A stretch of 64,000 nucleotides of DNA from an uncultured bacterium. Lineage in GTDB: Bacteria; Myxococcota_A; Bradymonadia; UBA7976; VGTA01. Position numbers and translations under genes: made by a program. The DNA lies in contig CALSSE010000014.1 in the NCBI GenBank assembly GCA_943788935.1, positions 22,682 through 86,681 of the forward strand, written 5' to 3'. Below the pieces are notes generated by a model that had not been told where the DNA came from, did not search any database, and saw nothing but the letters and a program-made list of their open reading frames with translations. This document shows positions 1,449 to 61,200 of this stretch, piece after piece (position 1 is the stretch's first letter; the number at the start of each line of letters is the position of its first letter).

Positions 1449-1510
1449 CTCTTACCCGCGACTCTCTTACCCGCGACTCTCTACCCGCGACTCTCTTACC
1501 CGCGACTCTC
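1449..1510 (+). repeat. 4 x 15-bp tandem repeat (CTCTTACCCGCGACT); third unit is 14 bp
   Basis: Units at 1449, 1464, 1479 (lacks one T) and 1493. Confidence 0.95.
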
Positions 1511-1583
1511 TCTTTTAAGAGATCCGCAATCGCTCAGTCACGCTAGGGGCAGTGTACTCTCATCTCTCTCTGTCTCATCTCTC

Positions 1584-4500
1584 TTGATGATATCTAGCCT
1601 ACTCCTCTTCTCGATGAACGCTGAGGCTCAATTGACTCAGCCTGATGGCTCGGTGATCCCTGCTCAAAACAACCTCGCTAATATCTTGAATAATGCCCCT
1701 CTCAATGAAGGGATTAACGTCATCAATGAAGCGAGCCTCGTGCCTGAGGTCTTCACCCCAAACAACTCGCTGACCTTTAGCTTTGTCGCGGAGGGAGGAG
1801 GCTATGAGAACGCCTTCGGATGGTATAACCTCGGCGATGATGTGACGCAGGCCCAAAATCGCTTCGTGATCTTCAATTGCGCCGTTGAGCCGACTAATCC
1901 TTATGAGACGAGGGTGATCAATTTTTGTGGAAACCCTGAGTGGAAGGGGGGGGCGATCGGCTTCTTCTTGATCACACCTCAGCGACGAGATGGAGGCGGA
2001 CGGCGATCTCCCAACTGCGCGCGCAATGATAATGTGGGATATATCTATTATTCCGAGCCGAGGCTCAACATTGATGAAGATCCTAATAATGCCTTTATCC
2101 ATCACCTCGTCTATCGCTCAAATACTTACCCGAACGCCTTTTACTTTGGTTTTGAAGACCTCTTCAGAGGAGGAGATAATGACTTTGAAGACACGCTGGT
2201 CCTCGTTGAGGGTCTCCTCGTCGGTGATGCTCCTGAGCTCTGTGATGGACTTGACGATGACTGTGATGGTCGAATAGACGAAGGCGCTGAGGTCAACTGT
2301 TCAAGCGTATGTGGTCAAGGTTTACGCCTCTGTGAAGAGGGAGCGCTCAGCGCATGTTCGGCCCCTGACCCTGTAGAAGAGCTCTGTGATGGCATCGATA
2401 ATGACTGTGATGGTCAGCTAGACGAAGGGGTCACCCAAGTCTGTAATAACGCTTGCGGGGAAGGCGTAGAGGTCTGTGTCGTAGGTCAATGGGCAGGCTG
2501 CACAGCGCCGACGCCCACTGAAGAGCGCTGTAATAACGTTGATGAAGATTGTGATGGCGTCGTCGATGAGGGGCTAGCGATCTCTTGCGTCAATGGGTGT
2601 GGTGTAGAAGGAGAGCGTCAGTGCGTTGCCGGTAGCTATGGGTTATGTGACGCACCTCCGCCCGTCATCGAGCTCTGCGATGGAGCAGATAATGACTGTG
2701 ATGGTCGTGTCGATGAGAACGTCATTCAAATCTGTAATAATGGATGTGGATCCGGCGTTGAACGTTGTGAGAGTGGCGTCTTTGTCGCCTGTGACGCGCC
2801 TACTCCTAGCCTTGAGGTCTGTGATGGGGCCGATAATGACTGCGACGGCTTAATCGATGAGGAGATCACTCGTGAATGCACCAGTCAATGTGGCGCAGTA
2901 GGCGTTGAGCAGTGCCTCGGCGGTTTATGGATCGGTTGTACGGCGATACAGCCTCGGCTAGAGGTGTGTAACCTAATTGATGATGACTGCGATGGTCGTG
3001 TGGATGAGTCACTCTCCCAAGAGTGTCAGAGCGCGTGTGGACAGGGAGAACAGCAGTGCTCAGAGGGAGCTTGGTCAGCTTGTGACGCTCCCTTACCACA
3101 ACGAGAGACCTGCGACGGGGAGGATCAGGACTGTGATGGGAGGATTGATGAGGGAGTGACCCAAAGCTGTCGCGCTGAGTGTGGGGTTGGGTTACAGCTC
3201 TGCATCAATGGTCTATTTTTGGACTGTAACATCCCTCCACCTCAAGAGGAGCTGTGTGATGACATCGATAATGATTGTGACGGCCTCATCGATGAGCGAC
3301 TAGAGAGATCTTGCGACGCTCTCTGCGGCTCTGGAAGCGAGCTCTGTATTGAGGGAGAATGGGTTGATTGTAGCGCGCCAACTCCACGCGCTGAGACCTG
3401 TAACGCGCTCGATGATGATTGTGATGGTCTCATTGATGAGGCGCTCATTCGGGTGTGTGATAACCCTTGCGGCGAAGGAATGTCTCGCTGTGAGCTCGGT
3501 CGTTGGTCTGATTGTCCTGCCTTATCGGCGACTGAAGAGCGCTGCGATGGTGAAGATAATGATTGTGATGGTTTGAGTGACGAGCGAGTAATCTGTGAAG
3601 AGGCGTCAGCGATCTGTATCAGAGGTCGATGTGCAGAGCCATGCGCTAGCGGTGAGTGCTCTGTGGGTCAAGAATGTATCGAAGACGTCTGCCTCGACTT
3701 ACCTTGCCAAAACTGCCGCACGTACGAAATCTGTGAGAATGACCGTTGTCTCGACCCCTGCTCAACAATAGACTGCGCAGAGGGTCAATATTGTGATCAA
3801 GGAGAGTGTCTAGAAGGAGAGTGTTATGAGGGGGGATGTACGGCGGGGAAAATATGTGTAGGGGGTCGCTGTCGGCCTAACGACTGCGACTTAGTGAGCT
3901 GTGGCTTGGAGGAAGGTTGCCTCGATGGTCGATGCTTCGTGAGCTGTGCTCAAGTCAACTGCGCTGATAGTCAGCGCTGCGTGAGAGGAGAGTGCATCGC
4001 CGATGCTTGTCAAGATATCTCCTGCGCAGAGGGTGAACTATGCACGGCCGGAGGCTGTGTCCCCGACGTCTGCAGTAATGTTCTCTGTCCACCACAGCGT
4101 CGATGTGAGATGGGCCGCTGCGTCGATGACCCTTGCACGAGAGTGAACTGTCCTGCCGAGTCTGAGTGTGTGCTGAGGCGTGAGGGGGTCACAGACTGTA
4201 TCCCTCTACTCTCCTCCACGATGGATGAGCCTTCAGTCGTCTATCCTGAGTCAGAAGCGGGTGAAGAGGGGTCTCCAATTAACGTCTTGGGAGGCGATCC
4301 GGTAACAGAAGAAGAAGAGGTCGCTGAGTCGATCGCTGGGGGCTGCCAGCAAACTGAGCGTAGGGGACGTCGGCTCCCTCTCTTCTTCATGTTACTCTTT
4401 TCGATGTTAATCTTCTCGAGGAAATTCCTCTCGAGGAGACACCTCTTCTTTAACGCCTCTATTAGACTTTTGATAAGCCTCTTGAGCCTCTCTCTAGTCT

Positions 4501-7232
4501 TTAGCGCCTGCGATGAGTCTTCTGAACCGGTAGAGACCACTAATGGGGGTATGAGCAGCGAGAATGGTCCGTTTTTAATCAATGGCTGCTCACCGAGAAT
4601 AGAGATCTGTAATGGCGAAGATGACGACTGCGATGGAGTGGTCGATAATGTCTCCAACCTAGATCGAGATGCTGATAATTGTGGCGTCTGTGGAGTCAAA
4701 TGTGACTATCCGGAAGGTGAAGGCTCTTGCGTCCAAGGAGTGTGTCGACTTGCGCGTTGCTTACCGGGCTTTGTGAACGCCGATGGCTCAAGCGCGAATG
4801 GTTGCGAAGAGGTCTGCGAGATTAATTCTGAGCTCGAAGATGGTACCGATGTTTGCAATATGCGCGATGATGACTGTGATGGAGTTGTCGATGAAGGATA
4901 CAATTTGGGTCAAGATGCAGATCATTGCGGAGCATGTGGAGTGAGCTGTTATGTCAGAGGAGTCACCGAGGCAAGCTGTCTCTCTGGGCGCTGTGTTATC
5001 TCAGCCTGTGAGACTGGCTTCTTGAACCTCGATGGGGATGCCTTAAATGGTTGTGAGTATCTCTGCGAAGGAGCCGGGGCCTCAGAGCAGTGTAATGGTA
5101 GCGATGATGACTGTGATGGTCGAGTTGATGAGGAGGTCCCGCTAGAGGTGAGCTGTCTCACCGAGGGACTCTGCGCCGGAGTTCGTCCAGAGTGTCGAGG
5201 AGATGATGGCGCTGTGTGTTTATATCCAGCAGAGGTGAAGCTCTCAGGGGAGATACGGTGTGATGGCCGAGATGAGGACTGTGATGGTCTAGTCGATGAG
5301 GATTTCTTAGGGCTAGGGGATCCCTGCGATAGCGATGATGATGACCTCTGCTTTAATGGTGTCAGCGCTTGCTCGAATGATCGCAGCGCGGTCATTTGCC
5401 AAGAGAGAGTGAATATCATTGAACGCTGTGATGGGGAGGATAATGACTGCGATGAACGGATCGATGAGGGCTTCTTTCTCCTCTTTGACGCGCTCAATTG
5501 CGGCGTTTGTGGCCAGCAATGCCCAACGGTAAACACCGTCAGCAGCTGTCGCGATGGTGCGTGTGTCGTCGATGACTGCATGGCGGGATATGTTGACCTT
5601 GACCAAGACCCGACTAACGGCTGCGAATATACCTGTGAGGTTGACTCAGCGGCAGGGTCTGAGGGGATGGGAGCTGAGGGAGTGGAGGTCACAGAGCGCT
5701 GTGATGGTGTCGATAATGACTGCGATGGGCGAGTAGATGAAGAGCTCAGCCCTCCTCAAGATGCCACTTGCCTCGAGTTGGGAATCTGCGCAGGGATCTC
5801 GCCGACATGTTTGGGCGCAGCGGGCTTTGTTTGTCTCTACCCTGGTAACTATGAGCTCGGAGAAGAGACTCGCTGCGACAGTCAAGACAATGACTGTGAT
5901 GGTCTCATTGATGAGTCTTTTCCTGAGCTAGGTGCGCTCTGTGATGGCGCGGATAATGACCTCTGTCTGGGCGGCGTATTGCGCTGCTCAGCTGACCCCA
6001 TCGCCGCGCTCATCTGTAGTGACTCCCCTGATGGGATAAGCGAGCGCTGTGATGAAGTAGACAATGACTGTGATGGGTTCATCGATGAGAATTATGATCT
6101 GAGCGGAGACCCACTTAACTGCGGACGCTGTGGGGTCACCTGTTCGCAAGAATCAGCAGAGACTCAATGTTTTGAAGGACTCTGCGAAATTACCGCCTGC
6201 GCAGAGGGCCTCTATGATGTCAACGGCGTGACGTTAGATGGTTGCGAATACAGCTGTGAACCAAGTTTAGAGGGCGTCGAGGTATGTAATGGGGTAGATG
6301 ATGATTGCGACGGTAATATTGACGAGGAGATCTCGCCTCCCGTCGACCTCTCCTGCGATGCCCCCGGAGTCTGTCGTGGCGTTAGTCCAAGTTGTAGAGG
6401 AGAGGTTGGGTTTGTCTGTGAGTTCCCCGAGGAGGTTTATCAGGGGGTAGAGACTCGCTGCGATCAGCTCGATAATGACTGTGATGGTCAAGTCGATGAG
6501 GCGAGTGCTCAGCCAGCGCTCGCTATCCTTGGTGAGCTCTGCGGAGGTGGGGTGGGCGCCTGTGCTCGTCAAGGGGTACAGGTCTGCTCTCAAGATGAAG
6601 AAGGTACACGCTGTAGCGCATCTGAAGGACAAGCGAGCGCTGAGCTTTGTAATGGGATTGATGATGACTGTGATGGGCGAGTCGATGAGGAGATCGAACG
6701 GGAGAGTGAAATGGTCTTGGTTAGCCAAGGAGGGCTCAACTACTGGATCGATCGTTGGGAGGCGAGCCGACCCGACGCGACCGAGAACTCGATCGGCTTA
6801 GATGTGAGTCGATCATGCAGCAAGCCACAAGTCAAACCTTGGGCTAATGTGACTTTGCTAGAGGCTGAAGAGGCTTGTAGCGCTCGCGGGAAACGCTTAT
6901 GTACTGACCGAGAGTGGACTACCGCCTGCGGAGAGATTTATCCTTATGGATCGTTTTATAATCCGACTGCCTGCGTGACCGAGGAGGCGGAGATGAGGGA
7001 AACAGGCTCCTCTGCTCTGTGTGAGAGTGCCATTGGAACCTTTGACATGTCGGGAAACCTTGCCGAGTGGGCGCTCTGTGAACAAGCGCAGGACTGCCAA
7101 ATCGTCCACCCGCAACTCGGCGGAAGCTACGCTGATCGAGTCGTTGATATATGGCGCTGTGACTTTCGTGGAAACGCCGTTCCTACGATCTCAACCGCGA
7201 CCGCTGGTTTCCGTTGTTGCGCTGATCCTTAA
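1584..7232 (+). CDS. Giant Cys-rich surface protein: DUF4114-like N-domain, many MopE-type (E-x-C-D-G-x-D-N-D-C-D-G) repeats, internal CTERM-like anchor plus lipobox, C-terminal FGE/SUMF1-fold domain
   Basis: 1882-aa ORF. GFEDLFRGGDNDFED (DUF4114-like); more than 20 ExCDGxDxDCDGxxDE motifs; DxxNCGxCG repeats; YWIDRWEAS...PWANVT...GKRLCT..EW...DMSGNLAEW...GFRCC (FGE-sulfatase fold). The true start may be ATG 1429 (see findings). Confidence 0.85.
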   Translation: MMISSLLLFSMNAEAQLTQPDGSVIPAQNNLANILNNAPLNEGINVINEASLVPEVFTPNNSLTFSFVAEGGGYENAFGWYNLGDDVTQAQNRFVIFNCAVEPTNPYETRVINFCGNPEWKGGAIGFFLITPQRRDGGGRRSPNCARNDNVGYIYYSEPRLNIDEDPNNAFIHHLVYRSNTYPNAFYFGFEDLFRGGDNDFEDTLVLVEGLLVGDAPELCDGLDDDCDGRIDEGAEVNCSSVCGQGLRLCEEGALSACSAPDPVEELCDGIDNDCDGQLDEGVTQVCNNACGEGVEVCVVGQWAGCTAPTPTEERCNNVDEDCDGVVDEGLAISCVNGCGVEGERQCVAGSYGLCDAPPPVIELCDGADNDCDGRVDENVIQICNNGCGSGVERCESGVFVACDAPTPSLEVCDGADNDCDGLIDEEITRECTSQCGAVGVEQCLGGLWIGCTAIQPRLEVCNLIDDDCDGRVDESLSQECQSACGQGEQQCSEGAWSACDAPLPQRETCDGEDQDCDGRIDEGVTQSCRAECGVGLQLCINGLFLDCNIPPPQEELCDDIDNDCDGLIDERLERSCDALCGSGSELCIEGEWVDCSAPTPRAETCNALDDDCDGLIDEALIRVCDNPCGEGMSRCELGRWSDCPALSATEERCDGEDNDCDGLSDERVICEEASAICIRGRCAEPCASGECSVGQECIEDVCLDLPCQNCRTYEICENDRCLDPCSTIDCAEGQYCDQGECLEGECYEGGCTAGKICVGGRCRPNDCDLVSCGLEEGCLDGRCFVSCAQVNCADSQRCVRGECIADACQDISCAEGELCTAGGCVPDVCSNVLCPPQRRCEMGRCVDDPCTRVNCPAESECVLRREGVTDCIPLLSSTMDEPSVVYPESEAGEEGSPINVLGGDPVTEEEEVAESIAGGCQQTERRGRRLPLFFMLLFSMLIFSRKFLSRRHLFFNASIRLLISLLSLSLVFSACDESSEPVETTNGGMSSENGPFLINGCSPRIEICNGEDDDCDGVVDNVSNLDRDADNCGVCGVKCDYPEGEGSCVQGVCRLARCLPGFVNADGSSANGCEEVCEINSELEDGTDVCNMRDDDCDGVVDEGYNLGQDADHCGACGVSCYVRGVTEASCLSGRCVISACETGFLNLDGDALNGCEYLCEGAGASEQCNGSDDDCDGRVDEEVPLEVSCLTEGLCAGVRPECRGDDGAVCLYPAEVKLSGEIRCDGRDEDCDGLVDEDFLGLGDPCDSDDDDLCFNGVSACSNDRSAVICQERVNIIERCDGEDNDCDERIDEGFFLLFDALNCGVCGQQCPTVNTVSSCRDGACVVDDCMAGYVDLDQDPTNGCEYTCEVDSAAGSEGMGAEGVEVTERCDGVDNDCDGRVDEELSPPQDATCLELGICAGISPTCLGAAGFVCLYPGNYELGEETRCDSQDNDCDGLIDESFPELGALCDGADNDLCLGGVLRCSADPIAALICSDSPDGISERCDEVDNDCDGFIDENYDLSGDPLNCGRCGVTCSQESAETQCFEGLCEITACAEGLYDVNGVTLDGCEYSCEPSLEGVEVCNGVDDDCDGNIDEEISPPVDLSCDAPGVCRGVSPSCRGEVGFVCEFPEEVYQGVETRCDQLDNDCDGQVDEASAQPALAILGELCGGGVGACARQGVQVCSQDEEGTRCSASEGQASAELCNGIDDDCDGRVDEEIERESEMVLVSQGGLNYWIDRWEASRPDATENSIGLDVSRSCSKPQVKPWANVTLLEAEEACSARGKRLCTDREWTTACGEIYPYGSFYNPTACVTEEAEMRETGSSALCESAIGTFDMSGNLAEWALCEQAQDCQIVHPQLGGSYADRVVDIWRCDFRGNAVPTISTATAGFRCCADP

Positions 7233-7300: not shown

Positions 7301-8365
7301 ATGACTCATAAATCGTTTTGGCGACCGACCTCGTCACTATTATACCTCTCACTCCTCGCGGTCTTATGTGGCTGTGAGTCTTCGGAAGAGGGAGAGATGA
7401 GCGCCGGAGAGATGAGCGCTGGAGAGATGAGCGCTGGAGAGATGAGCGCTGGAGAGATGAGCGCTGGAGAGATGAGCGCTGGAGAGATGAGCGCTGGAGA
7501 GATGAGCGCTGGAGAGATGAGCGCTGGAGAGATGAGCGCTGGAGAGATGAGCGCCGGAGAGATGAGCGCCGGAGAGATGAGCGCCGGAGAGATGAGCGCC
7601 GGAGAGATGAGCGCCGGAGAGATGAGCGCCGGAGAGATGAGCGCCGGAGAGATGAGCGCTGGAGAGATGAGCGCCGGCTCAGGACCGATGTGTACAGACG
7701 CTACCCAATGCCCTGTTCCCCCGCCGGTCGCGCTTGTTGAGTGTGAAGAAGAGTGGGTCGTCGATGTGGTCTTTACTCCCATCTGCGTCGAGGGGATGTG
7801 CGATATGGAGAGGAGTACCCGTCAGCAGCGAAACTGTGCTGAAGAGGGAAGGGTTTGTCGTGACGGAGAGTGCCTGACTCCCCCTATGTCTGCTGTATGT
7901 GATCAAGAAACCCCCTGCTCTGAGAATGAGCTGTGTGTCTATAATGAGGGTCTCTGTGGCGCGATAGGCTTCAGCGATGGTCAAGGCAGATGTCAAATGA
8001 TCCCTAATCTCTGCGACGCTGTGGTGTCACCAGTTTGTGGCTGTAATGGAGAGCGCTATTCCAACGACTGTGTCGCTCGCTCAGCGGCAGTTGATGTCAG
8101 CCGCTTTGGTGGCTGTGCGGATGAAGAGGAGAGCGGTCGTTATGTCTGTGGTCAACAGACCTGTGATACACAGACATATTGCGCTATTTTCATGAACGAC
8201 ATCGCTGGCTCAGACCAGCCTGAGTATAGCACTGATTGCGCCCCTCTACCTGAGCAATGTGCTGAGTCTAACGTTCAGAGCTGCACAGCCTGCTTTATGC
8301 CGGATCTGTTCCTCACTTGCAGCGAAGTCGGTGAGCAGCTCATCGTCGTCTATCCAGGAGGCTAA
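7301..8365 (+). CDS. Cys-rich lipoprotein with (AGEMS)n linker and Kazal-like domain
   Basis: Lipobox LAVLCGC, 19 GEMSA repeats, and PVCGCNGERYSNDCVA (Kazal-like motif). Confidence 0.8.
   Translation: MTHKSFWRPTSSLLYLSLLAVLCGCESSEEGEMSAGEMSAGEMSAGEMSAGEMSAGEMSAGEMSAGEMSAGEMSAGEMSAGEMSAGEMSAGEMSAGEMSAGEMSAGEMSAGEMSAGEMSAGEMSAGSGPMCTDATQCPVPPPVALVECEEEWVVDVVFTPICVEGMCDMERSTRQQRNCAEEGRVCRDGECLTPPMSAVCDQETPCSENELCVYNEGLCGAIGFSDGQGRCQMIPNLCDAVVSPVCGCNGERYSNDCVARSAAVDVSRFGGCADEEESGRYVCGQQTCDTQTYCAIFMNDIAGSDQPEYSTDCAPLPEQCAESNVQSCTACFMPDLFLTCSEVGEQLIVVYPGG
7391..7675 (+). repeat. Coding VNTR, 19 x 15 bp (GGAGAGATGAGCGCY)
   Basis: Perfect units that differ only at the last base (C/T). Confidence 0.97.
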
Positions 8366-12680: not shown

Positions 12681-13197
12681 CGCCTCACTCACGATGAGCT
12701 GAGGTTAAGACAAGAGCGGTCCCTCTCATCGCTTGATTCACGACTTGAGATCATCGTACAGTTTTACTCTGAGGCTGTTTCAACTCTGAGGTGCTCAGTC
12801 CTCGCAAGCGCTCTCAACTTCGCCATAAAAGTTGATATTCACCGCCTCACCGACTCCTGTGTAAGCACTCATCGGAATGACTGTGCCTACGGCGGGCGTT
12901 ACCAGCCCCGAGATAACCAGCAGCTGGCCCATGAGTAGAAGAGATCGATGGCGCGTTGTCTGTGATCTCCATGTTGAGGTTTAAGTGTTCCTTAATCGCT
13001 ACTTGCGCGAGACTCGCTAGAAAAGACAGGGGGTATACTCAACTCACTTAAGAGACGCTCTAGCTCAGCTCCGTAAAATGAAATAACTTAGTTAAGAGTT
13101 TTATTTATCTAGATTGAATCATTAAACAAAGAGATTGCATGCTCTCACTATTTAATGTGAACTTTAGCTCTAAACTAAACCACTATTGGGAACGTGT

Positions 13198-15441
13198 ATG
13201 AATAGAAAAGTGTACCTATATTCATTAGGGTGCCTCATATTAATGATGGCATGTATAGATAATGCGACTTACCCGCTAGGCGGTGGTGATGACACCGGAG
13301 GAGCGAGAGCGAACATAAGTATCGCTGATCCTCGTGATGGGGGAAATACTTTTGAGAGTGCCGGCGAGAGGGCCGGCGAGAGTGCCGGCGAGAGTGCCGG
13401 CGAAAGTGCCGGCGAAAGTGCCGGCGAGAGGGCCGGTGAGAGGGCTGGTGAAAATGCTAGTGAAACCGCCGGTGAAATACCTGAGCAAGAGATTCGTTCC
13501 CCAAACATCATACTCATATTTGCTGATGACTTGGGATATGGCCACTTAGGGAGCTATGGTCAACGTGATATCCTCACACCTCATCTCGATCGATTAGCGA
13601 ATGAGGGAGTAAGGTTTACTCATTTTTACAGTGGGTCATCCTTCTGCCCACCCGCGAGGACATCTCTGCTGACAGGTTTGCATGGCGGTCGTATTCCAGT
13701 AAGACAGGTTGGCATCTATGATGATAACCAAGTCATTTTCCCAAGAGAGTTACAGGCCGCAGGTTATCGAACCGCTTTATTCGGAAAATGGGGCTTTAAC
13801 ACACACCAAAGAGGAGAAGAGATACGTGGTCCTGCCCCCACATCTCTTGGCTTTGATGAGTTTGTCGGGTTTCTCACCCATCGTGATGCTCATATGTATT
13901 ACCTTGATGGGACCGGGACAAACGGTAATAACCCTGTGGCTCAAACCCTGTTTGAAGGTGTAGGGGATTCACTGCAGCCATTAAATGTCTCCCCTGACCG
14001 TTATCTCCCTGATGAATTTCTTGATCGAGCGCTGCAGTTCATTGAAGAGAACAAAGATCAACCATTCTTTCTTTACTTTCCCAGCCAGCTACCTCATGCA
14101 GAGCTTGTTTCTCCACCTGAAGGGCTCGAACCTTATGTAGTGAATGGTCAGAGCATATTCTCGGAGAGTACTTTTGCGGGTAATCCTGCTTACCCCGATA
14201 CCGTGACTCAACCCTATGCGACCCTCGCTGCGATGATCTCACGCTTTGATCGCGATGTAGGTCTATTGATGGATAAGGTCAATGCTCTCGGCCTCGATTC
14301 AAATACCATTATTATAGTAACTAGCGATAACGGACCACATGTCGCAGGGGGTATTGTTGATCATAATCAGCTCAATGGCGCCCCTGGACTCTCGGGAAGA
14401 AAATTTGACCTATTTGAGGGGGGGATACGTGTTCCTCTAATCGCGAAATGGCAAGGGCAGTGGCCTTCAGCCTCCGTGATAGAAGGTCGCCACGCCTTAT
14501 GGGATATAGCGCCAACATTGAGAGAGTTAGCCGGAGTATCTCCACAACCTTCTGATGGTTTATCACTAGTGAGCAAGTTACAAGGCCAAGGGGGAATCAG
14601 TCATCAAAGGCTCTATTGGGAAACATATGCGTATGGAGGACAAAGTGTACGCACTGAAAACGGTTATCTTCAGCAAGAGGCAGCGATGATTCAAGACAAT
14701 ATAAAAGTGATTCGCGTCACTGAGGAGTACACGGGGAGTTATATCATCGCTTATGATCTCTCTCGAGGGGACCCCATAGAGACAATAGAGATGAGTATCG
14801 CTAACGATCTAGATAGCTGCCAATGGCTCCCTGATATCACTGAACAGCTTAATCAAGCTCATCAAGATGTAGAGGATGGCATTTTACCTCCAATACGGGC
14901 AATCTGTCAGCAAATTGGAGGTCAGGGTAATGATATTATTACCGGGATGAGTGGAGATGAGCGCCTCATCGGTCGAGGAGGAGATGACGAACTAAAGGGC
15001 CTAGATGGCGATGACGAAGTCTATGGCGGTCCCGGCAATGACAACCTGAATGGAAATATCGGGGAGGACTTTGTTCAAGGAAATACAGGGAACGATATCG
15101 TACATGGAGGACAGGGTAATGACACAGTTCGGGGGGGAAAGGGCGATGATGAGATCTATGGGGATCGAGGGAATGATACCCTTTATGGAGATCGCGGGAG
15201 TGACATCGCTTACGGTGGCGAAGGTGATGATATCTTCATCTATGAACGTTTTCATGACACCTTCACTATCTACCCCGACGAGTCAGGTATAGATGAGCTA
15301 CGCTGTATCGATGTTAGAGCCACGAGTGAGACCTATGAAGGTGCCGACCTCGTCTTGAGAATGGAGGCGAATGGGCTCATTAGACTCGTCAATCATCTAA
15401 ACAGCCCTACTATTGAGACTATTATTGATTGCAGGCCATAA
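13198..15441 (+). CDS. Arylsulfatase-family lipoprotein with AGE-repeat linker and C-terminal RTX Ca-binding repeats
   Basis: Lipobox LMMAC; PNIILIFADDLGYG; Cys-type CPPAR (CxPxR) followed by SLLTG; GKW, TSDNG, EGGIRVP; GGxGND nonapeptides near the C-terminus. ATG 13198 is preferred over TTG 13186. Confidence 0.92.
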   Translation: MNRKVYLYSLGCLILMMACIDNATYPLGGGDDTGGARANISIADPRDGGNTFESAGERAGESAGESAGESAGESAGERAGERAGENASETAGEIPEQEIRSPNIILIFADDLGYGHLGSYGQRDILTPHLDRLANEGVRFTHFYSGSSFCPPARTSLLTGLHGGRIPVRQVGIYDDNQVIFPRELQAAGYRTALFGKWGFNTHQRGEEIRGPAPTSLGFDEFVGFLTHRDAHMYYLDGTGTNGNNPVAQTLFEGVGDSLQPLNVSPDRYLPDEFLDRALQFIEENKDQPFFLYFPSQLPHAELVSPPEGLEPYVVNGQSIFSESTFAGNPAYPDTVTQPYATLAAMISRFDRDVGLLMDKVNALGLDSNTIIIVTSDNGPHVAGGIVDHNQLNGAPGLSGRKFDLFEGGIRVPLIAKWQGQWPSASVIEGRHALWDIAPTLRELAGVSPQPSDGLSLVSKLQGQGGISHQRLYWETYAYGGQSVRTENGYLQQEAAMIQDNIKVIRVTEEYTGSYIIAYDLSRGDPIETIEMSIANDLDSCQWLPDITEQLNQAHQDVEDGILPPIRAICQQIGGQGNDIITGMSGDERLIGRGGDDELKGLDGDDEVYGGPGNDNLNGNIGEDFVQGNTGNDIVHGGQGNDTVRGGKGDDEIYGDRGNDTLYGDRGSDIAYGGEGDDIFIYERFHDTFTIYPDESGIDELRCIDVRATSETYEGADLVLRMEANGLIRLVNHLNSPTIETIIDCRP
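13354..13476 (+). repeat. Coding 12-bp repeat (E-S/R-A-G), about 10 units
   Basis: GAGAGTGCCGGC variants in tandem. Confidence 0.9.
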
Positions 15442-26798: not shown

Positions 26799-26965
26799 GA
26801 CCTCTTCGACTACACTTAAGGTAATAAAGCGATATCTTCGAGACTAGGTCTCTAAAGATTAGGTCCATCATGAACCATATCAGATTAACTTTTACAGCTC
26901 TACTCCTACAGATTCGAATCATCAATTCGACAGTTTCAACACTCTATTTATTCTAGGAGTCATTG

Positions 26966-29359
26966 ATGAAAATATATATTATTTTAATCTTTACGCTGTT
27001 GGTTGAGATATCTAATGCCTCTGCAGAATGTGGCCAGGATATAATTGACTCAACCTATGAAGCCGATACTTCAGATTCAGTGGTTCGCCTAACAGAGATA
27101 AGTCTTGATAATCAAGACGATAGTTTCTCTCAAGCTCAGGGGATTGATTATGTCGTTGAGCTCAAGCTGTTAGGAGGAGAAACTTACACCTTTGAAACTC
27201 TTGAGAGTGAAGATTTCGATCCAGTATTAACTCTCTTGGTACACGATCAATGTGAAAACCTTATAGAACACGAGAGTAATGATGACTCAACCGGTAATAT
27301 ACCGAATGATAACTATGAGTCATTTATTGAGTACACCACGCCTCTCAGAACAGATGGTCAATACCTGTTATTAATCTCTGGACTCAATGAGATGACGGGA
27401 ACCACTAACCTAGAGATCAAACGCTTTGAGGCTGAGTTACCTGAGATGAATGGCGTTATTCTCACTGGAGATAGTATCACCGGTTGTCACTCTATGGCCG
27501 GATCTTACTCTTCGCATAGCCTTTTTCATCTTATTAGTGTTTTACTCCTTCTGTTATTGATCGCTCGCCGATTTACGATAATGAAATATGTGCGCACTCG
27601 TATCGCTCATTTTTTACTCTATTTTGTGCTACTCGGTAGCGCTCTTTCTCTGCTTGCTCCTGCCTCTGCCTCAGCTGAATTAAATGGCTTTTCAGTCATG
27701 AACTTTCGGCTCGCTTTAGGAACAAATCGTATTATCTCTCTTGAGACAGCAGGTGTTCCCGATCATTTGAATGTATATGGGGGAACATCTTATCATTATG
27801 CTAGCCAGCTTCTACAAGAGAAGACGATATCCTCTAGCCAAACTCAGGAGAGAAGTTTACTAAGTTCACAAACTTTTCAACAGTTTGGAGTGGGAATTGG
27901 GCTCTTTGATCTGGTTGCTCTAGAGTTCAATATCCCTGTTATATACACAAACCAAGGTGATGAGACTCTTTTTCCAGCATTAGGGACAACCCCTCGCGGT
28001 GATTCTCTCGCGCGGCTTCGCTTCTTAATCGCTGGTTCAAATACAGGAGCTTGGGGCCTAAGTGGAAGTTTAGCGACCACTTTACCCACGGGAGATAGCG
28101 CAGGACTGACAGGAGATGAGGGGGTTCAAACCTTACCTACTCTGACCGGAACTCATCGACATAATGACTTTATCACGAGCGTTTCTCTTGGCGCCTTAAT
28201 CAGAACAGAGACCGATGATAATGTGCGTGGCTTATCACTTGGTCAAGAGATGACTTATGGAATAGGGACCAGCTACCAATGGACGGATAGTATACTCTCT
28301 GGCGTTGAATTTGTAGGACGTAGCGACTTATCTGACTTTACTTATCAAAACCCCTTAGAGGTCATTTTAGGATCCCGTATAGGGCTCTGGGAACAGCTCT
28401 TCTTTGAGGTTGGCGGAGGAGCCGGGCTTATCTCTGGATATGGGACTCCTCTCTGGAGAACCTTCGCTGCTCTACAATGGCATCCTGAGAGCACTGATGT
28501 TAAAGACCAAGATCAAGACGGTATTCTCGATCAAGTGGATCAATGTCCTCTGCAACCTGAAGATCGAGATGAGTTTGAAGATGAGGATGGATGTCCTGAC
28601 CCTGATAACGATCAAGATCAAATTCTCGATCAAGCAGATCAGTGTCCGCTTAAAGCAGAAGATAAGGATGGGTTTGAAGATGATAATGGATGTCCTGACC
28701 TCGATAACGATCAAGATCAAATTCTCGATCAAGCTGATCAATGTCCACTCAAAGCAGAGGATATAGATGAATTTGAAGATGGGGACGGATGTCCTGATCT
28801 TGATAACGACCAAGATCAAATCCTCGATCCAGCAGATCAATGTCCGCTCAAGGCAGAAGATAAAGATGGTTTTGAAGATACAGACGGGTGCCCTGATCTC
28901 GATAATGATCAAGATGGAGTGCCTGACAGTAACGATAAATGTCCACTTAAAGCTGAAGATGGCATAGGGGATACACCAAAAGATGGGTGTCCATCAGCGT
29001 GTCGTATCTCCATCCCTGGGCAAGTGCTCTTTGCTAACAACTCAGCTGAGCTCAAAAAATCAAGTTATATTGAGGCTCAAAAGATCGTTGATTACTTGAA
29101 GACCTTGAAGAACTTCAAAGAGATCATTGTTGAGGGGCATACAGACAACGTAGGCTTCGCATATGCTAATCTTCGGCTCTCTCGCAAACGAGCCAAAAGG
29201 TTTGCGGCTGTACTGCGTCAAAAGATAAAGAACTCAACAATAAGTATTAAAGCTGTTGGCTTTGGGTTCAACAAGCCCATCGCTAGCAATGATACCCCAG
29301 AGGGGAGAGCCAAGAATCGTCGCGTCTCGTTCCGTATCATCGGAGGCGTGTGTAAATAA
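26966..29359 (+). CDS. PPC-like domain, internal CTERM-like anchor, second signal peptide, then beta-barrel/TSP3/OmpA (TraB-like) outer-membrane protein
   Basis: Signal ending ASA; FDPVLTLL...SNDD (PPC-like); GC...LLLLLLIARR; MKYVRTR...ASASA; barrel with GYGTPLWR; DxDxDxIxDxxDxCP TSP3 repeats; VEGHTDN...LSRKRA...GFGFNKPIASNDTPEGRAKNRRV. AGGAG RBS. Confidence 0.88.
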   Translation: MKIYIILIFTLLVEISNASAECGQDIIDSTYEADTSDSVVRLTEISLDNQDDSFSQAQGIDYVVELKLLGGETYTFETLESEDFDPVLTLLVHDQCENLIEHESNDDSTGNIPNDNYESFIEYTTPLRTDGQYLLLISGLNEMTGTTNLEIKRFEAELPEMNGVILTGDSITGCHSMAGSYSSHSLFHLISVLLLLLLIARRFTIMKYVRTRIAHFLLYFVLLGSALSLLAPASASAELNGFSVMNFRLALGTNRIISLETAGVPDHLNVYGGTSYHYASQLLQEKTISSSQTQERSLLSSQTFQQFGVGIGLFDLVALEFNIPVIYTNQGDETLFPALGTTPRGDSLARLRFLIAGSNTGAWGLSGSLATTLPTGDSAGLTGDEGVQTLPTLTGTHRHNDFITSVSLGALIRTETDDNVRGLSLGQEMTYGIGTSYQWTDSILSGVEFVGRSDLSDFTYQNPLEVILGSRIGLWEQLFFEVGGGAGLISGYGTPLWRTFAALQWHPESTDVKDQDQDGILDQVDQCPLQPEDRDEFEDEDGCPDPDNDQDQILDQADQCPLKAEDKDGFEDDNGCPDLDNDQDQILDQADQCPLKAEDIDEFEDGDGCPDLDNDQDQILDPADQCPLKAEDKDGFEDTDGCPDLDNDQDGVPDSNDKCPLKAEDGIGDTPKDGCPSACRISIPGQVLFANNSAELKKSSYIEAQKIVDYLKTLKNFKEIIVEGHTDNVGFAYANLRLSRKRAKRFAAVLRQKIKNSTISIKAVGFGFNKPIASNDTPEGRAKNRRVSFRIIGGVCK

Positions 29360-55241: not shown

Positions 55242-58200
55242 ATGCCAATGAAGAATATTACTCATCCCATCAACCTGCTGGTTTTACTGCTGACTCTAGT
55301 CAGCTGTGAAAACCCGATTGATGTGAAATTAGATATGACTGTAGAACAAGACAGTCGTGTTAATCCCCCCCCAAATGATATGACCATCACAGCTGATCAA
55401 CAGGCCCCTGATCAAGATGTAGAAGACGGATGTCAATCTCTTGGATCATGTAGTGACTCTGGGGGATGGTGTGAGCCGCTCAACCATCCAGAGTGTTGGG
55501 CAGATGGCGCACCAGTATGTTATGAGGTCGATCATCCTCTGTCTCAGCGCTATTGTGCCGACTCGCCCGTTATTGGATCTCATGGATGTGACTGCCCAGA
55601 GGGTTATCAAGTATCTGTAGAAGGAGATGCCTGCGTACGAACTGAGACCGTCGAAGCGACCAATAACGGAACGCTAATTCAGGTGTGTGCCGCCGAAGAT
55701 AATTCCAATTATGGCAAGTTTGGTGCGCTCTATCCTAATACTGACGGCAATGCCTCAAACGATAATGTACAGAGCTCTCTCTGGGACGAACGACTTAATC
55801 AAGTAGGAGTTTGGGCTTGTGAGAGCGGGAATGCGGGAGCGACTAGACATGAACCGCTCGGCGAGTGGATCGGATTCTCTCATTGTCTCTTAGTCGAAGA
55901 AGCGGGAGATTATCTTTTAGGCATCGCGGGCGACAATCGGGTGAGACTTAAGGTGGATGGTGAGCTGATCTTTGAGAGAGATGACACCTCTACAAGTAAT
56001 TTCAATTATTGGCACCTCAACCGTATCTCATTGACGAGCGGTGTGCACTTTATTGAATTATCGGGCTTAAATGACAATCAAGTAGCGGCTTTTGGTGCTG
56101 AGATCAGCGGACCTTTCCCTGCTGAATCATTACTCACCGAAGAGGCGATGAAAGTTGCAGACTATGAAGGTAAAATCATCTTCTCGACCGAACAGCTGAT
56201 CGATCAAGGTGTTTTTGACCTTGGCGCTGAGAGCGGCTGGACATGTCCCGAAGAAGGCTTTGCGCTCAATACTTGTGGGGATATGCCCACCTGTACACGC
56301 CTTGATACAATCGCTTGTGAAGCATCCGACGAGCCTCCTCCGCCAGATGTAGACTGTGATGAGTTGGGCCGTTGCGCCCCTAATGGTAGCTGGTGTGAGA
56401 GCGCTCGACACCCACAGTGTTGGTCGGGAGATGCGCCCATCTGTTGGGATCCGAGTCATCCCATCTCAATTCGACATTGTGGTGAAGACGTAACAGGAGG
56501 AGATGACTTCTGCGTCTGCCCAGAGGGCTTCTCAGTTAAGCCCGATGGAGACGGTTGCATTAAAGTGACTCAAGATGAGGCGACTTTTAATGGTCAGAGA
56601 TATCTCGTGTGCGATGCCGATGGAAGCTCTGCCTATGGCTGGGGTGGTGCGCTGTATCAAAACACCGATGGCGATCCCACAAATAACAATGTTGTGGATG
56701 CATATTGGGGGTCTACAAGCGCAGCAGATGATGAGAATGGTAGACTTAATCAGGTTGGTATTTGGGCGTGTGATAGCGAGACATCTCAAGTCGGCGTCAG
56801 CCCTGTCGATGAGTGGATCGGCTTCTCACACTGCCTCTCAATAGACAACGCAGGCGATTACCTCATCGGTATCGCAGGTGATAACCGAGTCCGCCTCAAG
56901 GTTAACGGACAGCTCATCTTTGAGCTTGATAATGAGCAGACTCGAAACTTCAACTATTGGCATATGCATAAAGTCTCTCTCACGAGTGGTGTCAATTTCA
57001 TTGAGCTCTCTGGCCTCAATGATGGGCTTATCGCAGCCTTCGGTGCTGAGATCAGCGGTCCTTTCGCTCCTGGGACAATTAACACTGAAGAGGCACAAAA
57101 GACCTCAGATTATGCAGATAAAATCATCTTTAGTACGGGCGATCTCCACGGAGAACTCTTTGACCTCGGCGAGGATAGCGGCTGGTCTTGTCCAGATGGC
57201 GCATCGCTCAACACCTGTACTGATATGCCAGTCTGCTCTACAACCGAGACCGCTGAGTGTATCAATGTGGTGACCCCAATGGACGACTGTGATCATAACG
57301 CAGACACCTGTGGTGATCATACGATTTGCGTTGATACTGACAGTGGTTTCGAGTGTAACTGTGCGCCTGGTTTTGAGGGAGACGGAGTGACGTGTACACC
57401 TGTTGCCTGCCCTGACAACGCGAGTGGCGCACCCGATTGCGCTTGTGATTCGGGCTTTGTCGGGATTCTCACCTTTAACTATGAGTCCAATGAGTGGTTA
57501 GGTACATGTATTATCGCTGATCCTTGTGATGAGATCACGTGTCCTCAAGGAGCGCTCTGTGACCCATGGACCTACGAGTGCGTCGACTGCGCGACTCGCT
57601 TCAGGTGTGTTAATGGTTCATACTGCGAGCCTGCAGATGCTCCATCTTGCTGGGCAGGAGACGCGCCAGTCTGCTACGAACCTTCTCATCCTCTCTCTCG
57701 TCAATATTGTCGTGAAGACGATGTTCCCGCTTCATGTGAATGTCCGGATGGTTATGAAGCCTCACCCAATCAGGACAGCTGTATCAGAATTAACAGCGTA
57801 CCCGCGACTTTCCATGGCACTCAATATGAAGCCTGTGATGCGTATGGTAATCGAGCGTATGGCTGGGCCGGCGCGTTGTACGAAGACACAGATGGTGATG
57901 ACACCAATAACGCGGTCCGAGATCCTTATTGGGGCCAATCGGGTAGCTCTGCTTTAGGTCGACTCAACCAGATTGGCATTTGGTCATGCGCTCCGGACAA
58001 TCCAAATACAGTAGGCTCTGATCCTCTCGGTGAGTGGATCGGTTTCTCACATTGCCTCTCTATTGATCGAGCAGGAGACTACCTTATAGGTATCGCAGGT
58101 GATAATCGTGTACGCTTCAAAGTGAACGGACAAATGGTCTTTGAGCGTAACGATACAAGTACACAGAACTTTAACTACTGGCATCTGCGTAAGGTCTCAT

Positions 58201-61200
58201 TGCAGAGCGGTGTTAATGTCATTGAGTTATCTGGATATAATGATCACGCAGTAGCGGCTTTTGGTGCCGAAATTAGCGGACCTTTCGCGCCAGGATCTAT
58301 CGATACAGAGGCGGCTCAGAAAAGCGCGAACTATCAAGATCATATCATCTTCTCTACAGGACAGATGGAGGGGCAACTCTTCGATATTGGTGAGCAGAGC
58401 GGCTGGTCTTGTCCAGACGTAGATCAAGCTTTAAACACCTGTGCTCCAGAGCCAGAATGTTCTGAGATTGAGCGTGTAGACTGTCTCAATGAGCCCGCAG
58501 ATTGCTCAGAGGCTTATGAGTGTGTGAATGGATCATATTGTGAGACTGGCAGTAATCCTCTCTGTTGGGAAGGTGACGCGCCTGTATGCTTCACGTTTGA
58601 TCACCCGCTATCTCAAGAGCACTGTCCACCTCCGGTAGATTGCTCTAATGCGTACGAATGTGTGAACGGTGCCTACTGTGAGACCGGTGACGAGCCTGCG
58701 TGTTGGGCGGGTGATGCACCGATCTGCTATCCGGTTGACGCCTCGATCTCACTTCGGAACTGCGCGCTTGACCCTTGTGATGGCGTGATCTGTGGCTCTG
58801 AGAACTTCTGTGATTCTGAGACTAGTAATTGCGTCGACTGCTCTGACGCCTATGAGTGTGTAAATGGCGCGTACTGTGAAATCGGTAACGATCCGCTCTG
58901 TTGGGCCGGTGATGGACCCGCGTGTTACACCTCAGAGCACCCGCTCTCAATCCAGTACTGTGAGCAGCCGATCGCGTGTATCTGTCCCGAGGGCTTCAGT
59001 CCGACCCCGAACCAAGATATCTGTGTCCAGAGCACCACTGTCGCCGCGACGAATAACGCGACAACCTATCAGGTATGCCCTGCGGTGAACAGCAGCGCAT
59101 ACGGCTGGGGCGGCGCGCTCTTCGCTGACACCGATGGTGATCCAAATAACAACCGACTCACCACGAACTACTTTAAGCAGCGCCTCAACGATGTGGGGAT
59201 ATGGGCATGTGACGCGAGCCAAGGCACTAGCGGTACGCTACCTGTGGGTGAGTGGATCGGCTTCTCGCATTGCGTCGATATCGAGGTGGGCGGTGACTAC
59301 CTCATCGGCATCGCCGGTGATAACCGCGTACGCTTCAAGGTTAACGGACAAATGGTGTTTGAGCGTAATAACTCCAACACCTCGAACTTCAACTACTGGC
59401 ACATCATCAAGGTTACGCTCAATAGCGGCGTCAACGTCATTGAGCTCAGCGGCCGTAATGATGGTCTGATCGCGGCCTTCGGCGCAGAGATCAGCGGACC
59501 GTTCCCCTCGGGGAGCCTCACGACAGAGGGTCAGCAGATGGCCGCGGATTACGCGGGCAACATCATCTTCTCGACCAGTCAGATGGAGGGTGATCTCTTC
59601 GATATCGGTGAGAACAGCGGCTGGAGCTGTCCTGAAGAGGACTTTGTTCTTAACAGCTGTTTACCTGAGCCTCAGTGTACCCGTCTAGTCTATGAGACTT
59701 GTGATGAGCTGCCTCCTGTAGATGAGTGTGCCGATAACCTTAATGACTGTGATGCTAACGCCACCTGTAATGACCTCCCGCAGGGTTACAGCTGTGTCTG
59801 TAACTTCGGTTATCTCGGTAACGGTACTCAGTGTGACCTCGCGCCATGTCCTGATAACGCGAGCGGCGGCCCACGCTGTACATGCGATGAGGGCTATGAG
59901 GGTCAGCTTAGCTTTGATCCAGACTTGGGCTGGAGCGGTGTATGTGAAGAGATTGATCTCTGCGAGGGTGTGGTCTGCAATGTCGGTGACATCTGTGATC
60001 CAGAGACCGGTAACTGCGTAAATTGTGACCGTTCCTTCGAGTGTGTTAACGGCGCGTACTGCGAGATCGGTGAAGAGTCTTTATGCTGGCAGGGAGATAA
60101 TCCACAGTGCTTTACACCTGATCATCCGCTCTCGCGAGAGAATTGTCCACCTCCGGTAGACTGCTCTAATGCGTACGAATGTGTGAACGGTGCCTACTGT
60201 GAGACCGGTGACGAGCCTGCGTGTTGGGCGGGTGATGCACCGATCTGCTATCCAGTAGACGCGCCGATCTCATTACGCAACTGCGCGCTTGATCCTTGTG
60301 ATGGTGTGATCTGTGGCTCTGGAAATCTCTGTGACTCTGAGACCAGTAATTGCGTCGACTGCTCTGACGCCTATGAGTGCGTAAATGGCGCCTACTGTGA
60401 AATCGGTAACGATCCGCTCTGTTGGGCCGGTGATGGACCCGCGTGTTACACCTCAGAGCACCCGCTCTCAATCCAGTACTGTGAGCAGCCGATCGCGTGT
60501 ATCTGTCCCGAGGGCTTCAGCCCGACCCCGAACCAAGATATCTGTGTCCAGAGCACCACTGTCGCCGCGACGAACAACGCGACAACCTATCAGGTATGCC
60601 CTGCGGTGAACAGCAGCGCATACGGCTGGGGCGGCGCGCTCTTCGCTGACACCGATGGTGATCCAAATAACAACCGACTCACCACGAACTACTTCAAGCA
60701 GCGCCTCAACGATGTGGGGATCTGGGCATGTGACGTGAGCCAAGGCACTAGCGGTACGCTACCTGTGGGTGAGTGGATCGGCTTCTCGCATTGCGTCGAT
60801 ATCGAGGTGGGCGGTGACTACCTCATCGGCATCGCCGGTGATAACCGCGTACGCTTCAAGGTTAACGGACAAATGGTGTTTGAGCGTAATAACTCCAACA
60901 CCTCGAACTTCAACTACTGGCACATCATCAAGGTTACGCTCAATAGCGGCGTCAACGTCATTGAGCTCAGCGGCCGTAATGATGGTCTGATCGCGGCTTT
61001 CGGCGCAGAGATCAGCGGACCGTTCCCCTCGGGGAGCCTCACGACAGAGGGTCAGCAGATGGCCGCGGATTACGCGGGCAACATCATCTTCTCGACCAGT
61101 CAGATGGAGGGTGATCTCTTCGATATCGGTGAGAACAGCGGCTGGAGCTGTCCTGAAGAGGACTTTGTTCTTAACAGCTGTTTACCTGAGCCTCAGTGTA

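Follow-up and report, generated by a model that had tools for sequence, protein, structure and literature searches.

How a single reading frame can carry, in its middle, a sorting tag that belongs at the extreme C-terminus of a protein and, directly after it, a lipoprotein signal that belongs at an N-terminus is the question raised by a gene at positions 1584-7232 of the stretch of DNA analyzed here. This stretch, hereafter the window, comprises 64,000 nucleotides of contig CALSSE010000014.1 (positions 22,682 to 86,681, forward strand) from an uncultured bacterium of the lineage Myxococcota_A. The source genome is a metagenome-assembled draft of 5.95 Mb in 31 contigs, with a guanine-plus-cytosine (GC) content of 49%, and the sequencing runs that contain the stretch are marine metagenomes. 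From the layout and conservation of its sequence we judge it fairly probable that the gene encodes a real envelope precursor, derived from two formerly separate neighboring genes, whose chain is cut on both legs of a membrane hairpin. Under the same qualification, the original halves would have been a surface protein of the MYXO-CTERM type, with DUF4114 and MopE domains, and a lipoprotein with MopE and FGE-sulfatase-like domains.

The junction within the fused gene

A six-frame listing of open reading frames (ORFs), together with translation, yields a single frame on the forward strand that stays open through 1882 codons. Pfam searches identify many Cys-rich MopE repeats on both sides of the junction and agree with the labels, DUF4114/MopE and MopE/FGE, that an earlier reading of the bare sequence (hereafter the original prediction) had assigned to the two halves. 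No OmpA domain was detected in the downstream half by the Pfam search, the MopE repeats and the FGE-sulfatase-like domain being found there instead. The elements of the gene and of its junction, which includes two predicted transmembrane (TM) segments, are as follows.

1584-7232, forward strand: fused precursor gene, a frame of 1882 residues made up of a DUF4114/MopE half, the junction and a MopE/FGE-sulfatase-like half
1944-2210, forward strand: DUF4114 domain, residues 121-209 (Pfam PF13448, E 6.6e-10)
4194-4343, forward strand: acidic, poorly conserved linker, residues 871-920 (translation and alignment A1, described below)
4344-4346, forward strand: tag cysteine Cys921, predicted site of lipidation and of myxosortase cleavage (the Cys of the genome's tag family)
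4374-4418, forward strand: first TM segment, the hydrophobic helix of the tag, residues 931-945, LPLFFMLLFSMLIFS (translation and tag model)
4419-4442, forward strand: basic loop RKFLSRRH, residues 946-953, 8 residues (translation)
4443-4508, forward strand: internal lipoprotein signal, residues 954-975, with Arg961, the hydrophobic region (h-region) LLISLLSLSLVFSA and the lipobox (translation)
4509-4511, forward strand: lipobox Cys976, predicted residue 1 of the mature second protein (translation and alignment A1)
6819-7220, forward strand: FGE-sulfatase-like domain, residues 1746-1879 (Pfam PF03781, E 4.4e-10)

Nucleotides 4338-4511 of the frame encode GGCQQTERRGRRLPLFFMLLFSMLIFSRKFLSRRHLFFNASIRLLISLLSLSLVFSAC, preceded by the acidic linker (...VTEEEEVAESIA). 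The GGC motif at residues 919-921 is followed by a polar, Arg-rich stretch and then by the hydrophobic helix of 15 residues; the loop RKFLSRRH doubles as the basic tail of the tag and as the start of the n-region of the following signal, whose hydrophobic stretch ends in VFSA immediately before Cys976. No stop codon occurs between tag and lipobox in the frame, and no in-frame ATG or GTG lies between the two hydrophobic segments, where only ATT (Ile960) and TTG (Leu963) are available. The description given by the original prediction, an internal tag of Cys, TM helix and basic cluster running into a lipoprotein signal without a stop, is exact, as is its statement that one translation product carries both signals.

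Judged against the general lipobox pattern, the second signal has the features of a signal peptidase II (SPII) substrate, with a basic n-region (SRRH...R961), an uncharged h-region (LLISLLSLSLVFSA) and the lipobox Cys976, but it sits at residues 954-975 of a frame of 1882 residues, with no ATG or GTG before it, and not at an N-terminus. The tag, likewise, has the invariant Cys at the start of the domain and the TM helix (LPLFFMLLFSMLIFS) followed by basic residues (RK..SRR) that characterize MYXO-CTERM, but the tag match ends 934 residues short of the C-terminus.

The integrity of the junction was assessed on contigs from other sequencing runs. A contig from a DNA run of a different study (X5) spans positions 4255-4742 with 0 differences, and a contig from an RNA library (X3) spans positions 3800-4632 with 2 substitutions, both outside the junction; two further runs (X4 and X6) cover the junction in two pieces each, and no indels were reported among the contigs of other runs aligned over it. 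The original prediction would have fallen had reads revealed a stop or a frameshift at this point. The X5 and X3 contigs bridge the junction intact, and an assembly error there is excluded by the independent DNA run and the RNA-library contig. A strain variant is present in X6, a run from a metatranscriptome library, at positions 4362-4367, where Arg is replaced by Gly and Gly by Glu in the polar part of the tag without introduction of a stop; the part of the first helix covered by the X6 contig (to 4422) has no reported change.

Conservation, tag family and recurrence

Orthologs were sought with the C-terminal 210 residues of the fused protein as query. The closest share 70% (G001, same genus), 60% (G022), 59% (G006) and 58% (G002) identity with it. 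Tag, loop and lipobox are kept in G001, G006 and G022, in frames of 1856-1896 residues, the loop of G006 being just RRRR, and the junction of tag and lipobox is also kept in three distant orthologs from metagenome-assembled genomes (L053, L054 and L055; 35-41% identity). Two short relatives (L056 and L057) are DUF4114 proteins that terminate in the tag. The original prediction had called for a comparison of fused and split homologs, and for this family the outcome is uniform: the junction is fused in 7/7 orthologs that reach it (the gene itself, G001, G006, G022 and the three distant ones), which together span 35-70% identity and 45-75% GC. Judged from these sequences, the fused layout of the gene is old. 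Frames of about 900-1000 residues in three other genomes (G021, G015 and G005) were considered as split orthologs and rejected, being only 30-42% identical over the MopE/FGE segments; lying in GC-rich DNA, they also run on upstream, and they leave no clear split ortholog of the gene.

An artifact of sequencing or assembly, or a recent pseudogene born of stop loss, would have to be considered for any gene in a metagenome-assembled draft of 31 contigs, the more so with a possible frameshift in a tandem repeat at its 5' end (see below). Such an origin is scarcely credible here: an independent DNA run has the same sequence across the junction, and 6 other genomes, with identities as low as 35%, share the fused layout.

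In an alignment of the four full-length orthologs (A1), 5/63 columns are invariant over residues 916-976, namely Cys921, Leu937, Leu938, Leu966 and Cys976, and 3/55 over the linker (residues 871-915), versus 43-63% in the flanking domains. This pattern fits that of targeting peptides, which are kept for their physical properties and then discarded.

The internal tag was compared with the terminal tags of the same genome. Six-frame ORFs ending in Cys, a polar stretch, a TM helix and a basic cluster were collected by regular expression, and 3 doubtful sequences among the 49 candidates were dropped. The roughly 46 C-terminal tags of the genome conform to G/S-C-Q/D/A..., with 6-14 polar residues, a TM helix and RRR, and occur in otherwise unrelated proteins. 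A genome-specific hidden Markov model (HMM) was trained on the 46 terminal tags only, with 22,147 reversed ORFs as the null set. At a score of at least 11 bits the model returns 61 forward matches versus 2 reversed ones, and it assigns 16.6 bits to the internal tag of the fused gene, the best reversed match reaching 14.0 bits. The cognate enzymes are encoded as well: one protein of the genome exceeds the cut-off of the myxosortase core model NF040914 (136.6 bits, cut-off 100), lspA has one match (105.8 bits, cut-off 73.95) and lgt has two (147.6 and 121.2 bits, cut-off 118.9).

By these comparisons the internal segment is a member of the genome's own divergent MYXO-CTERM-like family. The MYXO-CTERM-like identity put forward by the original prediction consequently stands as far as the genome tag HMM and the myxosortase gene are concerned, and fails on the curated model, TIGR03901. 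In a six-frame search, just 2 tags of the whole genome pass the cut-off of that model. The two genomes of the genus have 45-49% GC, versus 69-75% in the examined loci of relatives from the same family or order, and the tags of the low-GC genus are rich in Phe, Met, Ile and Lys, not in Ala, Leu, Gly and Arg; it is probably because of this shift in GC and composition within the lineage that TIGR03901 misses most tags here. Two terminal tags (one in a stop-to-stop ORF of 1350 residues on contig C29, the other in one of 605 residues on C22) carry short repeat tails past the basic cluster, consisting of SSLDH repeats and of SRIRC/SRIRY repeats, which are unusual as cytoplasmic extensions of a sorting tag.

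Twelve matches to the tag HMM at 11 bits or above have more than 25 residues remaining after them, and 7 of these were accepted as internal tags. The 5 set aside are two tags close to the terminus that have repeat tails (27 and 29 residues remaining), one match without the Cys, one at the N-terminus of an ORF of 593 residues and one in an ORF of 74 residues. Apart from the gene at 1584-7232, the accepted tags lie in six long ORFs, on contigs C2, C9, C12, C26, C28 and C29. In all six the basic cluster runs into a signal peptide without a stop and mostly without a start codon; the signals on C2 and C12 have a lipobox (SPII), those on C9, C26, C28 and C29 are of the signal peptidase I (SPI) type, and the downstream parts of the genes on C9, C26 and C29 contain OmpA domains. 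The proteome scan that the original prediction had proposed, for internal tags followed by a signal, was run with the genome tag HMM, and all 7 internal tags precede a signal. A crude signal rule, with 20,000 random positions in 1,259 long ORFs as background, detects a signal of any kind after 6/7 internal tags versus 8.45% of background positions, and a signal of the lipobox type after 3/7 versus 0.22%.

A weaker site of related design lies in the window itself.

26963-29359, forward strand: second fused gene, 798 residues, a small N-terminal protein with a tag-like end, a signal peptide and a TraB-like TSP3/OmpA part (Pfam, NF033763)
27485-27676, forward strand: its junction, comprising Cys175, a TM helix, RR, an ATG at 27581-27583 and an SPI-type signal ending ...ASASA (translation)

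The original prediction had placed the same design at position 27482. The order of Cys (27485-27487), TM helix and basic residues followed by a signal peptide, with no stop before the latter, is indeed present, but the site differs from the first in that the signal is of the SPI type, an in-frame ATG is available and the tag is weaker, scoring only 3.0 bits on the genome tag HMM and remaining unmatched by TIGR03901 on the junction fragment. The second gene contains TSP3 repeats and an OmpA domain (PF00691) according to Pfam, and its C-terminal part scores 147.1 bits on the TraB model NF033763, whose cut-off of 700 marks it as a relative and not an equivalog.

TraB-like proteins are numerous in 30 related genomes, mostly in frames of about 600 residues. 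Among the matches listed, 14 lie in open frames of 1500-7300 residues, 13 of them from relatives, and in 13/13 of the latter a GC...TM...RRRR tag runs directly into a signal peptide, behind which lies the TraB-like domain. A tag-terminated gene was found upstream of 0/10 stand-alone TraB-like genes in loci L002-L012 (a set that leaves out L009, which has the fused form, as well as L010 and two second matches at the locus edge), so most TraB-like genes lie outside such pairs. The generality that the original prediction had suspected is borne out at the level of layout, with 7 strong internal tags and 1 weaker site in the genome, 13/13 loci of relatives and 7/7 orthologs of the first gene.

For three of the other families, named here after the contigs C2, C12 and C28, orthologous junctions were examined in G001, G002, G006 and G022 (n = 10).

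C2 family: split in G001 (same genus); fused in G002
C12 family: split in G022; fused in G001, G002 and G006
C28 family: split in G006 and G022; fused in G001 and G002

Taking the three families together, 6/10 junctions are fused and 4/10 are split. In the split forms the upstream gene stops a few residues past the Arg cluster, and the downstream gene begins at an ATG or GTG of its own with an ordinary signal peptide; the genes of a pair overlap by 1, 4 or 23 nucleotides or lie 20 nucleotides apart. G006 and G022 belong to one genus, yet they have opposite states for the C12 family. Because the split pairs carry complete tag-terminated and signal-peptide genes, the halves also exist and work as separate proteins. 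Going by these comparisons, what one species makes as two independent proteins another makes as a single chain, and small indels account for the change from either state to the other. A different genetic code, in which a sense codon (AGA or AGG, in the loops of the 7 strong junctions) would act as a stop, was considered and rejected: the split forms of relatives use ordinary stops, and the occurrence of the same fusions at 70-75% GC in relatives also disfavors it.

The split forms and the second site bear on a further explanation, according to which internal starts, at ATT (Ile960) or TTG (Leu963) in the first gene and at the ATG at 27581 in the second, supply most of the second half, read-through being a tolerated by-product. 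The second site does have an in-frame ATG just before its signal peptide, and translational coupling is present in the split relatives, whose genes overlap by 1-23 nucleotides. In the absence of a stop codon, however, ribosomes must read on, and the fused chain is made anyway. In G006 and G022 the Arg cluster is separated from the lipobox Cys by only 13-18 residues, none of them Met; several other internal junctions have no ATG or GTG, and an n-region begun at ATT or TTG would contain at most one basic residue. We hold internal initiation as the main source of the second half to be highly improbable.

Predicted processing of the precursor

Under the reading we prefer, in which the precursor is cut twice, the N-terminal signal would start Sec export of the first half, the tag helix (residues 931-945) would halt transfer, the RKFLSRRH loop would remain in the cytoplasm, and the next h-region would restart export and form the second leg of the hairpin. 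Myxosortase would cut at Cys921, which is probably lipidated, and Lgt and LspA would modify the chain and cut it before Cys976. Processing would yield equal numbers of two products, a DUF4114/MopE protein anchored at its C-terminus and a MopE/FGE-like lipoprotein acylated at its N-terminus, with a hairpin peptide of about 54 residues left over. The order of TM segment, basic loop and TM segment agrees with the positive-inside rule, with the loop in the cytoplasm, and in this respect it also suits the membrane hairpin of the original prediction; we infer the topology itself, both cleavages, the lipidations and the final locations from sequence.

The two cuts can be doubted separately. The fusion could be real and undergo one cut only, by LspA or by myxosortase, so that one half would keep the hairpin or a single TM anchor; the score of the tag below the curated TIGR03901 cut-off and the atypical Phe at position -3 of the lipobox speak for this variant. 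We consider it unlikely, given that Cys921 and Cys976 are both invariant in the four aligned orthologs while nearly all of their surroundings have changed, that the myxosortase and Lgt/LspA systems are both encoded, and that the split forms of the other families have complete, separate signals. Alternatively, no cut would take place, and the product would be an inner-membrane protein with two TM segments and periplasmic Cys-rich domains, in which the old signals form a mere hairpin. Its topology would be stable, with the basic loop inside, and the G002 contig described below hints at halves joined without a tag. A plain hairpin would nevertheless have no need of the Cys before the first TM segment or of the lipobox Cys, which are kept in 7/7 orthologs; in three other families some relatives have the fused form and others the split one, and terminal tags of the same family mark some 46 other proteins as sortase substrates. 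Complete absence of processing appears quite unlikely to us.

Several observations weigh against a precursor that is exported and cut twice. No cleavage product has been observed so far for this protein or any of its kind, and we know of no demonstration of LspA processing a signal peptide that lies behind another TM segment. The contig from the RNA library, for all that it spans the junction, is no proof of transcription. The curated MYXO-CTERM model TIGR03901 (cut-off 20 bits) gives no match at E<=1 on the junction fragment, the tag is absent from its 8 six-frame matches in the genome at E<=10, and Phe is unusual at position -3 of a lipobox. In G002 (locus L035, contig C407, 4332 nucleotides) the truncated contig contains only about 40 residues upstream of the second half, and these show a MopE repeat running into that half and neither tag nor lipobox; in this lineage the halves may stay joined without the junction, or the junction may lie further upstream.

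The remaining difficulties concern the 5' end of the gene, where two features are relevant.

1449-1511, forward strand: 15-nucleotide tandem repeat, 4.3 copies, one of them of 14 nucleotides, between an out-of-frame ATG (1429) and the ORF
1584-1631, forward strand: putative N-terminal signal peptide, the first 16 codons, ending ...NAEA before QLTQPDG (translation)

This signal is weak, with about 14 residues before the predicted cut after NAEA and no basic n-region; the orthologs have ordinary signal peptides, which end just before the conserved QL.QPDG. Relative to the precursor ORF, the frame of the ATG at 1429 (MKRRFLS...) is shifted by one base, and 15 nucleotides in the short repeat copy, in place of 14, would join the two. 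An assembly slip, a phase switch or a defect could each account for the 14-nucleotide copy, and with its weak signal and out-of-frame ATG the protein encoded by this copy of the gene might be poorly exported or phase-variable.

Beyond the single gene, we lean slightly towards a broader proposal, which we grade only as a whole: that a polyprotein route is in general use for envelope proteins among Myxococcota. In such a route the signal peptide of one protein and the MYXO-CTERM tag before it, joined by an arginine loop that belongs to both, would be inserted through Sec as a single hairpin. Of two lipid-dependent endopeptidases, myxosortase would cut the leg formed by the tag and LspA (or signal peptidase I) that formed by the signal, and the partners would be produced 1:1 at one membrane site. 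Lineages would switch freely, by small indels, between covalent coupling and the translational coupling of overlapping genes, and about 1/8 of the tag-bearing genes of this genome would use the route.

If both cuts occur, the gene would represent a natural bacterial polyprotein in which both products are lipid-anchored, one C-terminally and the other N-terminally, and in which two unrelated machineries act on one small hairpin. Such a system would provide a genetic handle on the substrate rules of myxosortase, its tag needing no terminal position, and would test the action of LspA on a signal behind another TM helix. The question of how TraA/TraB-like pairs and other partner proteins of the envelope come to be made in equal numbers would be touched as well. 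For annotation, genes of this kind are easily miscalled as giant multi-domain adhesins, and split and fused calls differ among relatives. The natural junctions, some of them as short as about 40 residues, are possible design elements for the co-display of two proteins.

Other genes of the window were noted in passing. The ORF directly downstream of the fused gene (7301-8365) scores 33.9 bits for Decapeptide repeats, below the cut-off of 45, and has a weak Pfam match to a Kazal-type protease-inhibitor domain (22 bits, cut-off 21). A protein with a sulfatase domain and RTX repeats (Pfam Sulfatase, E 8e-51) is encoded at 13186-15441, 6 kb downstream of the FGE-sulfatase-like domain at 6819-7220, and an ORF of 2906 codons occupies positions 55242-63962, near the end of the window.

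Comparison with known systems

Precursors that are divided at an internal signal have counterparts elsewhere. The envelope polyproteins of enveloped RNA viruses combine a stop-transfer helix with an internal signal sequence and are cut by the signal peptidase of the host. They share with the junction described here the order of TM segment, short cytoplasmic loop and re-initiating signal, with a cut on the far side of the membrane, and differ in relying on the machinery of the eukaryotic endoplasmic reticulum and in having no lipid anchors at the cut ends. The cytochrome b/c1 precursor of Bradyrhizobium (FbcH) is reportedly cut into two proteins at an internal signal peptide behind TM segments; it differs in that signal peptidase I acts alone, with neither sorting tag nor lipidation, and in being a single case and not a recurring junction.

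The closest published precedent is found in work on the myxosortase MrtX, which cleaves the MYXO-CTERM tag of TraA in a Cys-dependent manner, also in Escherichia coli (Guo, Haft and Wall, mBio 2025, PMC11980579). The authors hypothesize that lipidation of the Cys comes ahead of cleavage, and they describe MXAN_5598 of Myxococcus xanthus as an adhesin followed by an internal MYXO-CTERM and an outer-membrane beta-barrel/OmpA domain. They take this protein to be a fusion of two genes whose N-terminal part they propose to be processed and surface-anchored, compare it with the overlapping ORFs of TraA and TraB, and call ORFs with an internal tag rare. They also cite, as a case of a tag functioning in mid-protein, an ArtA substrate of Haloferax volcanii whose tripartite PGF-type signal lies elsewhere than at the C-terminus (J Bacteriol 199:e00802-16); judged from that citation, it differs from the present gene in its archaeal archaeosortase and in its type of signal.

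MXAN_5598 and the gene at 1584-7232 both have a tag of the MYXO-CTERM type in mid-ORF, and the architecture of MXAN_5598, resembling TraA and TraB, is shared by the second gene of the window (26963-29359) and by the 13 loci of relatives. The downstream half of the first gene is different, being an SPII lipoprotein with MopE/FGE-like domains and with neither barrel nor OmpA, and the rarity reported by the authors contrasts with the 7 strong internal and about 46 terminal tags of this genome. The abstract and the Discussion passages on such ORFs make no mention of an internal signal peptide, a hairpin or an alternation of fused and split forms. A literature search, with supplementary Table S1 of PMC11980579 outside its scope, found no published lipoprotein-signal variant, hairpin signal, within-genome frequency or fused/split toggling, and a text search of Haft's preprint found nothing on internal tags, fusions or polyproteins.

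The TraA/TraB pair of M. xanthus, as presented in the same source, offers a parallel in which tightly coupled genes encode a MYXO-CTERM surface protein and, after it, a partner that has its own signal peptide, much as the split relatives described above overlap by 1-23 nucleotides. It differs in that M. xanthus has two ORFs, whereas here stop and start are gone, and the NF033763 score of the second gene, far under the cut-off, denotes a family resemblance to TraB only. The principle of a processed internal tag is already in print with MXAN_5598, and the idea is to that extent not wholly new. Assigned by sequence, the second site (26963-29359) is a member of the MXAN_5598 kind, and the fused gene at 1584-7232 is a variant of the same principle in which the predicted partner is a lipoprotein with an SPII signal.

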